IMG/VR virus record: IMGVR_UViG_648276656_000008
Origin: a virus
Lineage: Duplodnaviria; Heunggongvirae; Uroviricota; Caudoviricetes
Reading direction: 5' to 3' (one strand)
Length of the DNA stretch: 15,267 bases
The notes below the pieces were generated by a model. It was not told the DNA's origin. It made no database searches and was given only the letters and a program-made list of their open reading frames with translations. Both the position numbers and the translations under genes were made by a program. The number at the start of each line of letters is the position of its first letter. Positions within the stretch are counted from its first letter, which is position 1. Below are positions 828 through 14,859 of the stretch, piece after piece.

Positions 828-3420
828 TTGCATATTCCTTAGCCCAGCGGGGCAGTGATAATGTCTTAATAGCTGGCCATTCATCGGTATTCAGGCAGTC
901 AGACAGGGTTAGCAGATTGCGGTGATATTCCTGTTGACCTGCCAGTTTTGCTTCTTCGCCCATCATGAAAATTTCAACCGGATAACGTCCGCATTCAATA
1001 GTTGTGCTGGCAACCAGAAAAACGAAAGTTGGCTGCACTCCAAACTGTGCTTCATAACCGTCACTGTAGAATGCATCCTGAACGTGATAGCGGTAGTCGT
1101 AATAAGCGGTTTTGAATCGTTGAATATCCGCCGTAGTTTTCACGTCCATGATCCAGTGAAATTCAGGGATAATTTTGTCCGGACGGCACCGACACAAAAT
1201 TCCTGTTTCAGGATCTTCCCAGTAAATTGATGATTCAGCGTGTCCGGCGCTTTCAACAAGCCATTGCCCCAGCGGCAAAGCCATAACGCTTTGATACATG
1301 AGTTCAATTTTCCGGCCTTCTTCCGCAGTGATAACCGTTTTTCCTGTGCTTGCGCATTCCATCAGAAACGCTTTCTCTTCTTCTTTTCCGGCGTTTGTAC
1401 GGCGGTTAAATTCAGGTGCTACGATAAAGCGGTTACTGAATTCTTCCGGTTCAAGTACCCGGCAGTGGAAAGCAGTTCCTAAATCGAGCGTTTTTGTCTT
1501 TGTGGTGTCCACGGGGGCATTTTTACGCCACAAATATAGTGCCGGAGTATCAGCAATGTCATCGAGCTGAGACTTACTGATACCGGGACCCGCGTGGTAA
1601 TTCTCATTCGAAATTCCGTAATAAATACCTGGCTCTATGTCTTCTACGATTACGGGATCTGCGACTTCGCCAGTTTCATCACTGCAATCGCGATGGGGAT
1701 CGCTGCCAGCATTCTCATTGTGCGGATGTTCAGCGCCTTCCATTTCCTCCGGATCATTTTCCTTAGCTTCAACCTGACTCTCTTCATCGAATGTTTCCTG
1801 GTATGTTGCGTCGCCCATCACCGCACCACAGTCAGGGCAGTTATCCCCGCCAGTCTGGCCGCAGGCATTGCAGGCTATTTCCGGTTCCTGTTGCACTACT
1901 GGCTCAGGTTGATTCATATCTGGGCTGGTTTTTTCCGTTTCTGGCTGGTTCTGGTACACACAATCGCGAGTCTGGATCCCCTTTACCCATTTCGGATCGT
2001 TCGGGTCGCTAATTCCGTCAACAAATTCACCACGTGATGCAGCAAGCAATTTATCGGCATCGACAGGATTTTTTGATGGAATGTTTTTCCGGGCTTCATG
2101 GAGTTCTGCCCGCAGTTCCTGATATTTCGCATCAACAGAATTTACCTGTGACTGAGCATCCAGCGGCTGCGTGTCCTGATGATGTTCAGTTGCGTCCGGT
2201 TCCATTGTTTCAGCCTCTCCCTGTTCAACTGCCGTTGTTCCAGATGGTTGCGGTTTTTCTTCATCATCCTGTTTTCCTTCTTCTGTTACTCGCTGCGGCA
2301 TCGGGGCAGAGGAGCGACCGCAGGCAATATCCACGATTTCCGGATCAGGGTTGGCATGATCGGTTTCAGTCAGTACTTTGTTCAGATATTCAGTGACGTG
2401 CGCGGGGATGACCTCGATCCCAATTGGTGCTTCTTTTACGGACGCAACCACGATGGCGCGGGAATAATCCAGCCCGCCAGGCATGGTGATGAATTTGTCG
2501 CGGAAAACAGAAAAGGGCGGTTTATTTTCAGCGATAATTTCCTCAATGCGTTTAGCGTGTGCCGGATGAAGGTTATAGATGTCCAGATCCATTGAACGGG
2601 CCAGTACGCCAGTGGCTACGTCGCGCGCCAGTGACGTCAGATCGTGTACGAAACCTTCGCCGCGATCGGTGAGGTTTCCGCCGCCAGCATTAGCACCGGA
2701 AGCCGTGCGAGTGATGTGTGAAACACGATTACCCTTCATCCACTCTTTTGTCAGCAGTCCTCGATCGGTGTAGTCAGCGTTCAGGTATGCTTCGAAAAAA
2801 GCAGTTATCAGTCCCAGGTTTGAATTACCAGGATTAGGGAAAACTTTGTCAGTGTCACGAACCAGTTTGTGGAGTTCGCGAATTTCCAGCGGGTCGAGCA
2901 GGCTGGTTTTGTGGGAAACAGCCAGGGCAGTAACAGCCGGTAGTTCTTCAGCCCGAGCAATGTGTAATGCCTGGAGTCCGTCGCGTGAAACGTGCGTTAC
3001 CGGTTTTTCGCTGCCGTGTTGAGCAAGCCAACGAATGGGCAGTTCCCGGCCAGAAATTGGGAGTAGCATATTCTCCTCAATCTCAGTCATGTCTTCGCCG
3101 TTGACGTTGGTATTGCCTTGATAGTGAGCGTTGTCTGGTGCTGCTCCCGGTTTTAGTTCCCATGTCATGGAGTCTTTGCTGAGTTGATAGCGTTCACTCC
3201 AGGTAAAATCGATCTCACCTTCAGCGGGCAGGTCATTAACGACAGGAAAATTCGTGGCAACAGCTTTAAAATAGCTGCTCAGTTTTTTACCTGACTTAAC
3301 GATCAGGTAGTCCAGAGTGGCACAGGTCGATTCAAAATCGTTGCTTGCCCACAGGACGACGTCAGGTTCACCGGATGATTTTTTCGCTTTCCGTAACAGG
3401 AAGAGTGGTTTTGTGCTCAT
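820..3420 (-). CDS. recE: RecE exonuclease VIII
   Basis: 866-aa [17 protein letters not shown]... ending ...RWAKEYAND, the length and sequence I recall for Rac RecE. It sits immediately upstream of recT with an 8-nt overlap. Confidence 0.93.
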
Positions 3421-10435: not shown

Positions 10436-11104
10436 ATGACAGTTGCTGATTTCAAACGTCCTAAGTTGGAGCTCCCAAACGGGGCAAACAAACTACTATT
10501 ACACTCTTGTTGTGCACCATGTTCCGGTGAAGTGATGGAGGCTCTTCAGGCCTCAGGAATCGACTACACCATCTTCTTCTATAATCCGAACATTCATCCT
10601 CAGAAAGAGTATTTGATTCGTAAGAATGAGAATATTCGATATGCTGAACAACATGGTGTACCGTTTATCGATGCTGATTACGACACTGACAACTGGTTTG
10701 AGCGAGCCAAAGGAATGGAATGGGAGCCCGAACGTGGGAGGCGTTGTACTATGTGTTTTGACATGCGTTTTGAACGGACGGCGCTGTACGCCGCTGAAAA
10801 TGGTTTCAGTGTGATCAGCAGTTCACTGGGCATTTCTCGCTGGAAAAATATGCAGCAGGTTAACGACAGCGGACGGCGAGCTGTCGCACATTATCCGGGC
10901 ATGGTGTACTGGGATTATAACTGGCGCAAGCAGGGAGGCTCGTCCCGCATGATTGAAATCAGCAAACGCGAACAATTCTATCAGCAGGAATATTGTGGTT
11001 GCGTGTATTCACTTCGCGATACCAATTTACACCGCAAATCCCAGGGACGCCCTCTTATCAAAATTGGTCAACTCCACTACGGTAAAGAAGAAGGGCAGGA
11101 ATGA
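10436..11104 (+). CDS. queH: QueH-like epoxyqueuosine reductase (DUF208 family)
   Basis: 222-aa product with the N-terminal [11 protein letters not shown] motif, a central RCTMCF and a C-terminal YCGCVYS cysteine cluster, the pattern I associate with DUF208/QueH. No clear Shine-Dalgarno before ATG 10436. Confidence 0.65.
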
Positions 11105-11413
11105 TTTTTACATTACGTCAACAGAGTGTCACAACGTTTCTATATATGGTATGCCGACCGTAATTTTCGAATCATCATGACTAATAGGCAGGTCACCTAT
11201 GCCAGCAATGACCTGCTCATCTTGAAATTAGCAGAAATCTTGTAGCTATGATGTAGCTCAAAATAGTTTTTCATTCTTTTACCTGATGTCTGTTCCTGGC
11301 TGAAAACAGACTGTATTATTTAATTACGCACCACTGACACTTGTTTATTGAAGTAGTGAGTACAAAGCCACATATTTATCAGTGTATGTATACGTCAAAA
11401 ACAGGAGATTGTT

Positions 11414-11503
11414 GTGCTGGTTCTGAAGTGTGCGTTAGCAATAGTGGCTGTGGTGGCAATTTATTGCCTTGTTGTTGTTCTTATGGAGCGACTTTCTGAT
11501 TGA
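11414..11503 (+). CDS. Putative small hydrophobic peptide (29 codons, GTG start)
   Basis: AGGAG at 11403-11407, 6 nt before GTG 11414. Product (M)LVLKCALAIVAVVAIYCLVVVLMERLSD is one predicted transmembrane helix with a charged tail. Not in the ORF track. Confidence 0.35.
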   Translation: MLVLKCALAIVAVVAIYCLVVVLMERLSD

Positions 11504-11644
11504 TTACATACTGGCTAAAAAAAGCGTTTGCCTGGTTTATCTTTGTCCGGCAAGGTGCGCTCATTAATCTGAAGTAAATTTATTTCTTAAGTATTCAGAT
11601 TACTTCTTATGGTCGAAGTCTCCTGGCAATGTAGAACCAAAATA

Positions 11645-11686
11645 TTTACAAAAAGGAGACCCGTCGGGGATAGCCCTGCCGGGTCT
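11645..11686 (-). terminator. Intrinsic terminator downstream of the DUF1971 gene (between convergent genes)
   Basis: Stem AGACCCG(11657-11663)/CGGGTCT(11680-11686); on the minus strand it is followed by CTTTTTGT. Confidence 0.5.
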
Positions 11687-11715: not shown

Positions 11716-12054
11716 CTATTTTTTGGTGCTATAGACTTTTTCGCCTGAGAAGTCTGGAGCGACCCAAAAGTTAATATTAAACTGAGCATCATCGCTTAGT
11801 TCAACACGGTGCCAGTATTGTGGTGGGCTTGTTGCAAAAGAGCCAGCATTAATAACTACTTTTATCTCTGGTTCAGTAGTATTCTCATCAGCAAAACCAT
11901 AATATGTTACAGTGCCTTCCATTACGCACAACTGCCCAAAAACACCTGCTGCTGTATTATGATGTGTTAATAATGCTGAAGGTACGTTCTCTTTTGTGAA
12001 GAACGGAGTTGAGCGTTTGATTACCCAATCTTTAGGAATTCTCTTGTGTGTCAT
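11716..12054 (-). CDS. DUF1971-family protein (YeaR/TehB-N-terminal-like)
   Basis: 112-aa product MTHKRIPKDWVIKRSTPFFTKE...YYGFADE...FNINFWVAP resembles E. coli YeaR as I recall it. GGAGGTG lies 5 nt upstream of ATG 12054. Confidence 0.65.
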   Translation of the reverse strand: MTHKRIPKDWVIKRSTPFFTKENVPSALLTHHNTAAGVFGQLCVMEGTVTYYGFADENTTEPEIKVVINAGSFATSPPQYWHRVELSDDAQFNINFWVAPDFSGEKVYSTKK

Positions 12055-12705
12055 AACCACCTCCTATAAAACATGCATTATGAATGCTCCTTTTGAGGAG
12101 TTATGTCAAGCTGTTATGAAACACATAATTGATATGTTGATTAGAGGAGTAGATAGAATAAATATGGTTGTTTTTGGTGTAACTACTTGTTTTTCTTTTG
12201 GTTTATGCATTCTGTGTGTTAGGAATAAGTTATTAAAGTTTAATCAAGAAATCTCGATGCATTCCACATAGATTACTGTTACTGAACCTTATTGTGTGCA
12301 TTAGTTGTGTTCTGAAATTTCAGCTTAATTATTTATGATATATTTTTTAACGATAAATGTTTTCCCAGGTGAAAGACAGTTGGGAATAAGATAAGTAATA
12401 TATCATTAATCCTGATTATTCCCAGGTACCTTTACTGTGCATATAAATAAATCATATATGCATCAAATAGTGTAAAGGCATCCTTTTAGATATGTCTTAT
12501 CAAATGTTAATGACTTGAGTGGGAAACATGATTCCAGCAACTTATCATGTGGCTACTTTATAAAAATAATGCCCATATAAAACAACAAGCGAAAAGGATT
12601 ACGGATAAAAAAGGAGCGAGATGTGCAAACTTGTTATTTTCCATGTTTAACCACCTTAAATAATTGATGATGACGGGATGATTGCATCTGTAATGCTTTT
12701 ATTGA

Positions 12706-14705: not shown

Positions 14706-14781
<76 letters not shown>

Positions 14782-14784
14782 TAT

Positions 14785-14859
<75 letters not shown>

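Follow-up and report, generated by a model that had tools for sequence, protein, structure and literature searches.

A conserved 29-codon reading frame in the early-right region of lambdoid prophages of Escherichia is a candidate membrane microprotein gene

Introduction

Very short open reading frames in prophages pose a simple question: does the frame specify a protein and, if so, what kind of protein is it? The case considered here is a 29-codon small open reading frame (sORF) that an original prediction, made from the letters of the DNA, described as encoding a candidate small membrane toxin or regulator, with an architecture typical of type I toxins and small membrane proteins. The window, by which we mean the whole stretch of 15,267 nt that was analysed, belongs to the Rac-like lambdoid prophages of E. 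coli. Its gene order can be read from the annotation of a 100%-identical copy in strain AMSCJX02. The left part comprises sieB, ydaF, a repressor/Cro-like pair, ydaT, the replication genes, DUF1627, DUF977 and QueH (10436-11104), in that order, and the right part an unannotated gap, DUF1971 (11716-12060, on the opposite strand), DUF1367, DUF1364 and a DUF1133 Q-like gene, with tRNA-Thr and tRNA-Gly, the lysis genes and trkG at the far right end. The sORF lies in the gap, with the replication module on one side and the Q module on the other, and is read in the same direction as the early-right operon.

The reading frame and its product

The start and stop codons of the sORF can be read directly in the window (GTG at 11414-11416, TGA at 11501-11503), as can the AGGAG Shine-Dalgarno (SD) sequence that had been placed 6 nt upstream of the GTG (Table 1). 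The SD is near-invariant in related loci, with 95-100% conservation per position. An in-frame TGA is found upstream at 11357-11359 and there are no alternative start codons from there to the GTG. Written from methionine, the product is (M)LVLKCALAIVAVVAIYCLVVVLMERLSD, and its layout is the one originally proposed, with a lysine near the N-terminus (Lys5), a hydrophobic core and a charged tail (ERLSD). On the Kyte-Doolittle scale the highest 19-residue mean, 3.07, falls at residues 6-24, and the overall GRAVY is 2.06. This hydropathy is transmembrane-like and bears out the description of the product as a small membrane protein, which by composition it is. An ORF of this size is not by itself beyond chance, however, because 13 ORFs of at least 20 aa overlap the same 616-bp unannotated gap; it is conservation that raises the sORF above this background.

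Table 1. Features of the sORF region, in window coordinates
Feature	Position	Strand	Basis or remark
Conserved module: leader, SD, sORF and 12 nt past the stop	11346..11515	+	blastn, alignments
Putative weak sigma-70 promoter: TTGAAG (11348-11353), 17-nt spacer, CATATT (11371-11376)	11348..11376	+	inferred
Shine-Dalgarno AGGAG	11403..11407	+	6-nt spacer (11408-11413) before GTG
sORF, 29 codons + TGA, predicted single-pass membrane microprotein	11414..11503	+	product MLVLKCALAIVAVVAIYCLVVVLMERLSD
12 nt past the stop, homologous to hok-linked loci	11504..11515	+	alignments; right-hand recombination junction
Terminator hairpin of the convergent DUF1971 gene	11657..11686	-	inverted repeat, T-run, annotation

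Distribution

A sensitive blastn search was run with window positions 11330-11600 as query. Of 5,426 complete E. coli genomes, 1,901 gave matches; identities were mostly 77-86%, and a single genome had up to three copies. This places the sORF cassette in roughly one complete E. coli genome in three, BL21(DE3) and REL606 among them. The part common to the matches corresponds to query positions 17-186, the ~170 nt of the conserved module, and 341 of the 1,901 matching genomes cover at least 80% of the window-type query. Among the matches listed from these genomes, RefSeq shows no feature beneath the sORF; the suspicion that annotation had missed it was thus well founded.

Four cultured phages (HannyBb, Tritos, Evi and mEp460) carry the sORF, as do E. 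albertii, E. ruysiae and Shigella flexneri. A codon-degenerate pattern run against 185,579 species genomes (one per species) found it in Escherichia, in Shigella and otherwise in just three short MAG contigs. These contigs (L128, L129 and L131, each ~3 kb, from bins assigned to Collinsella, 'Scatousia' and Haemophilus) contain near-identical E. coli sORF-hok sequence, and an occurrence in the three named groups was rejected, the contigs being almost certainly misbinned E. coli prophage DNA. Plasmids searched by tblastn gave no match. When a large protein collection was searched with a 40-aa in-frame translation of the window, only Escherichia members were recovered and no distant homologue of the peptide was seen.

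Conservation of the reading frame

Related loci were gathered by means of two sequence patterns, one anchored in the ORF and the other in the 5' leader only, the latter so that the ORF itself remained unbiased. Proportions of related loci given here and below (135 of 145, for example) refer to these pattern-gathered sets among the matches listed and are not population estimates. In the leader-anchored set, the GTG is kept in 129 of 129 of the loci listed and the frame is exactly 29 codons long in 126 of them, with no frameshift or early stop in any of the 129. Of the three loci that depart from this length, one has a frame of 31 codons owing to a point change at the stop, and two have a frame of 35 codons owing to a 9-bp deletion in which the stop is lost. 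Across the 54 unique variants among the listed matches, the sense frame is the only one of the six that is open in all.

The 35-codon allele, VLALTCVLAIVAVLVIYCLVVAFMERFSDWRGRGS (locus L146, 5998-6087, and locus L149), has lost its TGA to the 9-bp deletion and also carries K5T. Its dN/dS is relaxed, and it may therefore be decaying.

Comparison of the window allele with those of other lineages by the method of Nei and Gojobori gave dN/dS values of 0.13 for ATCC 25922 (11 synonymous changes against 6 non-synonymous ones; Fisher P = 2e-4), 0.10 for E. albertii and 0.15 for each of EcU7, BL21 and HannyBb. Closer lineages are noisier (0.4-0.5), and some lineage pairs give values of 0.4-1.0. When the variable sites of the leader-anchored set are roughly tallied by codon position, the outcome is marginal, with 16 of 35 at third positions (P = 0.09). 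A lack of synonymous-biased conservation of the frame across homologous prophages was among the outcomes that the original prediction named as counting against it; the deep lineages display the reverse, the frame being kept at dN/dS 0.10-0.15. Coding on the opposite strand was considered and rejected: the antisense frame that has a low pN/pS, similar to that of the sense frame, is interrupted by stops in every variant, and a second, partly open antisense frame is broken in 15 of 54.

How far the homology reaches to either side differs between lineages. Upstream of the start codon, it ends at around -100 in most loci, at -68 in the window, at -42 in E. albertii and at about -22 in BL21/C41(DE3), whilst on the right the homology between the two types of context stops 12 nt past the stop codon. 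That the breaks fall at differing points on the flanks identifies the cassette of SD, GTG and 29 codons as the conserved and selected unit. Conservation of the leader between -45 and -1 is roughly equal to that of the ORF.

In the BL21/C41(DE3) locus (L002, 2706-3115), the RefSeq DUF977 coding sequence overlaps the sORF by 40 nt, in a different frame. The SD of the sORF lies inside the 3' end of DUF977, so that both are probably translated from one transcript.

Within the peptide, the conserved residues are Lys5-Cys6, Ala9/Ala12/Ala15, Tyr17-Cys18-Leu19 and the terminal Leu-Ser-Asp, with occasional substitutions at some of these. Conservation of this kind, going beyond bulk hydrophobicity, may hint at specific helix packing. 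Taken together, the evidence makes it very probable that the ORF is a real, translated microprotein gene.

Published and database record

The sORF is already catalogued, yet unnamed and unstudied. Its BL21 ortholog, at NC_012971.2 1591437-1591524(-), is listed in Table S4 of a survey of intergenic small ORFs in Enterobacteriaceae (Fesenko et al., 'The Cryptic Bacterial Microproteome'; PMC11188072). There it is assigned to the Entero67K class, the set of microproteins under purifying selection, and to cluster Escherichia_98807, which has 389 members and a dN/dS of 0.46. The same work also supplies the initiation-site profiling by which the original prediction proposed to check the start codon: in the authors' Ribo-RET re-analysis, the BL21 ortholog has TIS counts of 13 and RPF counts of 38, with 90% coverage of the ORF (PMC11188072). 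The signal is low and comes from another allele in another strain than the window's; annotated small proteins with similar TIS counts in the same table include ynaL (6), ecnA (8) and ynhH (10) (PMC11188072).

Leaving aside the start residue (V vs M), there are 5 differences in 29 positions between the window peptide and the BL21 member, VLVLKCTLAIVAVMAIYCLVIVLMDHLSD, whose gene agrees with the window sORF in SD, start and length. In both alignment and context the two are orthologous, and the window peptide accordingly belongs to cluster Escherichia_98807. They differ in position: the BL21 member sits upstream of hokD, whereas the window sORF is found in a minority context without hok. The catalogue entry is without name, function or description. 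GenBank calls some alleles, sporadically, as 'hypothetical protein' or 'membrane protein' (ACT39199.1 in REL606 and ACT43394.1 in BL21(DE3), for example). An exact-sequence look-up did not find the window allele in a collection of 15 billion proteins, and the literal peptide strings are absent from 8 million full texts.

Expression signals

A putative weak sigma-70 promoter precedes the sORF (Table 1), with a transcription start predicted near 11381-11384 and a predicted leader of ~30 nt. The TTGAAG-17-CATATT arrangement agrees with the consensus at 8 of 12 positions and was hence overlooked by a stricter scan. It is present in 45 of the 54 unique variants among the matches listed, and CATATT, conserved at 97-99% in the ORF-anchored loci listed, is the best-conserved stretch of the leader. 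BL21-type loci are without this promoter, and in 13 loci it is replaced by a palindrome; it is therefore not essential. What the loci have in common as a source of expression is read-through from the early-right operon.

The palindrome is a perfect one of 17 bp, TCTCATCAATGATGAGA, found in place of the TTGAAT -35-like hexamer in locus L029 (10276-10292, minus strand) and in 12 other loci. It has the look of an operator site to which a dimeric protein would bind.

A promoter-like TTGATG-16-TATAGT (9/12 consensus positions) lies on the minus strand at about -92 to -53 from the sORF start in 42 of 54 variants among the matches listed, for example at ~2980-3020 in locus L003. It faces away from the sORF towards variable leftward cargo (DUF4209, an acetyltransferase and others), and the conserved segment from -100 to -45 may therefore be a divergent promoter region.

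The right-hand boundary and the neighbouring hokD/sok locus

On the right, the hairpin at 11657-11686 lies 154 nt beyond the sORF stop and bounds the sORF transcription unit. The sORF had been described as converging on the DUF1971 gene across a shared terminator. The convergence is confirmed but the sharing is not: the T-run of the hairpin is on the minus strand only, which makes this the terminator of DUF1971 rather than a clearly shared bidirectional one.

A second, leftward terminator-like hairpin is seen at 11528-11553 (TTGCC-T-GG / CC-GGCAA), with a minus-strand run of seven T (the plus-strand A-run 11517-11523). Having a loop of 11 nt and a spacer of 4 nt, it falls outside the criteria of the terminator scan. 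The whole, at 11517-11553, looks as if it would end minus-strand transcripts 14 nt before they reach the sORF stop. Two perfectly matching 9-bp arms, TAATCTGAA / TTCAGATTA, also form an inverted repeat around a 20-nt loop between the sORF and the DUF1971 terminator (11565-11602); this repeat is kept in window-type loci.

The arrangement in the window is that of a minority. Most prophage contigs, the cultured phages, ATCC 25922 and BL21 have hokD directly downstream of the sORF. A distance of 10 nt separates the sORF stop from the -35 of a hok promoter, TTGGCG-17-TAGAAT (found in locus L003), and the hok leader comes next, with an Rfam call of sok/hok RF01794 at 112.7 bits. Among the matches listed, 145 loci reach far enough downstream to show the neighbour: a hok leader follows the sORF in 135 of them and a convergent DUF1971 gene in 10, the window included. 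The 12 nt past the stop in the window have as their counterpart, in hok-linked loci, the segment leading into the -35 of the hokD promoter. In the window lineage, hok has been replaced by the convergent DUF1971 cargo gene.

Each of the two neighbours also occurs without the other: the sORF without hok in the window, and hok without the sORF at the characterised hokW/sokW locus of Sakai Sp5. A link between the sORF and that hokW locus was considered and rejected, there being no copy of the sORF in that prophage segment. HokW production goes up after mitomycin C treatment and aids phage release (PMC8621323).

We consider it quite improbable that lambdoid prophages have, in the sORF and hokD together, a hitherto unrecognised module of two membrane peptides, in which the sORF peptide would be either a second membrane toxin, controlled by the repressor, or a membrane-level modulator of, or immunity factor to, Hok. 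Such a module would account for the 10-nt distance that most phages maintain between the sORF stop and the hok promoter, and the window would then be a case of the sORF peptide acting alone after hok was swapped for other cargo. The fixed spacing to the hokD/sok promoter suggests a tie to prophage membrane toxins and lysis control.

A type I toxin?

On the type I reading, the sORF product would be a small hydrophobic peptide that depolarises the inner membrane and whose mRNA is held in check by an antisense or trans-acting sRNA. With 29 aa, one transmembrane helix and a polar tail, the sORF peptide resembles TisB, ZorO, DinQ and ShoB in size and architecture. Like these and like Hok/Gef, Ibs and Ldr, it is very small and dominated by a single transmembrane segment, and both its length (type I toxins being shorter than ~60 aa, with a predicted transmembrane helix) and its hydropathy of 3.07 at residues 6-24 agree with what is expected of the class. 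It is borne by prophages, and a bona fide type I locus, hokD/sok, adjoins it in most of them. Just past the stop, moreover, a minus-strand promoter-like TTAACT-18-TAAAAT is found in 23 of 54 variants among the matches listed.

The features expected of the regulation of a type I locus were nevertheless not found in the sequences analysed. TTAACT-18-TAAAAT is missing from the window and from most variants. Long, structured mRNAs with an occluded ribosome-binding site are typical of the class, whereas the sORF mRNA has a short predicted leader and a strong, exposed SD, and folds no better than shuffled sequences (MFE z = -0.39). No complementarity of 11 nt or more to the sORF was found elsewhere in the window or in the hok/sok locus, and the idea of Sok acting on it in trans was rejected for lack of such complementarity. 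At both gathering and permissive thresholds, Rfam returned no antitoxin from the window, the scan yielding two tRNAs only and nothing at the sORF. With only ~22 nt of upstream homology, the BL21 form leaves no space for a conserved 5' regulatory leader, and the basal translation signal in growing BL21 also sits badly with a toxin of this type.

Family searches point the same way. The toxin families in Pfam, NCBIfam, PHROGs and PADLOC were unmatched, and these collections together with the PDB sequences gave nothing usable, the hits being confined to ATP-synthase c-subunit noise at 13-15 bits and PHROG hits at E >0.7. For Hok/Gef (PF01848) there was no Pfam match at E <=10; the Hok profile covers ~50 aa, with a conserved Cys-containing periplasmic tail, whereas the sORF peptide has 29 aa and is without the Hok C-terminal domain. 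The type I reading of the original prediction thus finds no conserved antisense promoter, structured mRNA, trans-complementarity or family match to sustain it, and its proposed search of toxin families came back empty. The sORF is not demonstrably a type I toxin-antitoxin locus, and we regard membership of the class as distinctly unlikely.

What the peptide might do

Taken as a whole, the observations are best explained, with a probability that we put at roughly 0.5, by a genuine translated 29-residue single-pass inner-membrane microprotein of the early-right region of Rac/Qin-type lambdoid prophages in Escherichia and Shigella. There is about an even chance that its role at the membrane is a modulatory or accessory one. 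The steps that lie beyond translation we infer. In lysogens, basal transcription would be low, from the weak TTGAAG-17-CATATT promoter or by read-through, and would become stronger with the early-right operon after induction. The peptide would insert N-in/C-out, with Lys5 cytoplasmic and the acidic ERLSD tail periplasmic, and would probably act by helix-helix contacts involving Ala9/Ala12/Ala15, Tyr17-Cys18-Leu19 and Leu-Ser-Asp. Its target could be a membrane component of the host or of the phage. The main alternative activity would be a Hok-like perturbation of the membrane during lytic growth.

On this alternative, the sORF product would assist in lysis or host shutoff and would have no dedicated antitoxin. 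The prophage repressor would keep it silent, and it would be made only with the early-right operon after induction, helping to permeabilise the membrane as is reported of HokW in Sp5; silencing by the repressor would render an antitoxin needless. Its orientation and position within the early-right region fit such a role, as do the tight packing against hok and the precedent of HokW in Sp5 (PMC8621323). Three observations argue against it: the basal translation signal in the uninduced BL21 lysogen, the conservation of specific polar and small residues rather than of hydrophobicity alone, and the fact that the Sp5 hokW locus functions without the sORF. On balance we consider it unlikely. A regulatory leader ORF, whose translation would control hok or the next gene through attenuation or interference with the hok promoter, is very improbable indeed. 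The 10 nt between the stop and the hok -35 in about 93% of loci among the matches listed, together with weak terminator-like hairpins within the ORF, would suit it, but those hairpins are not significant, purifying selection acts on the peptide itself as a transmembrane helix, and the cassette is kept in arrangements that lack hok and have a convergent neighbour, such as that of the window.

It might also be asked whether there is a functional protein at all. The region could be conserved as DNA or RNA, be it as a promoter, an upstream element of hok or a recombination linker, with the open frame and the ribosome signal incidental. The leader that equals the ORF in conservation, the lineage pairs with dN/dS of 0.4-1.0, the low TIS signal and the one antisense frame with a similar pN/pS can all be cited in favour. 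That antisense frame, however, has stops in every variant, and the deep comparisons combine low dN/dS with a significant excess of synonymous changes. Length, start, SD and stop survive in mosaic flanks, the cassette persisting without hok in the window and without the leader in BL21, and an independent published pipeline likewise arrives at purifying selection (PMC11188072). We therefore judge a non-functional frame to be highly unlikely.

A translated membrane microprotein invites comparison with two groups of known proteins. MgtS, AcrZ, KdpF, CydX, MgrB and PmrR are likewise single-pass proteins of 25-50 aa; genes of this type are often overlooked by annotation and picked up by initiation-site ribosome profiling, and their products act by binding larger membrane proteins. 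The sORF is not homologous to them, is encoded by phages rather than by the core genome and has variable neighbours, with no adjacent partner protein. The small genes of the lambdoid early-right/nin region (the lambda nin ORFs, and Rem and YdfU in Qin) occupy the same slot in the same orientation and show the same mosaic, cassette-like inheritance. Their products are mostly soluble proteins with at least 57 aa, whereas the sORF specifies a 29-aa transmembrane peptide without a PHROG family.

At 29 residues, and present in BL21(DE3), REL606 and the phages mEp460 and HannyBb, the sORF is a tractable experimental target. Were it to act as a modulator of Hok, or of a membrane protein of the host, the small-membrane-protein regulators would gain a phage-borne member; should it do nothing measurable, its recognition would still be a useful correction to annotation.

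A further observation concerns the cargo of the prophage. The window carries both an epoxyqueuosine reductase, QueH (10436-11104), and, downstream of the Q-like gene, the tRNA-Thr/tRNA-Gly pair (14706-14856); the presence of a tRNA-modification enzyme together with tRNAs on one phage is an interesting pairing.
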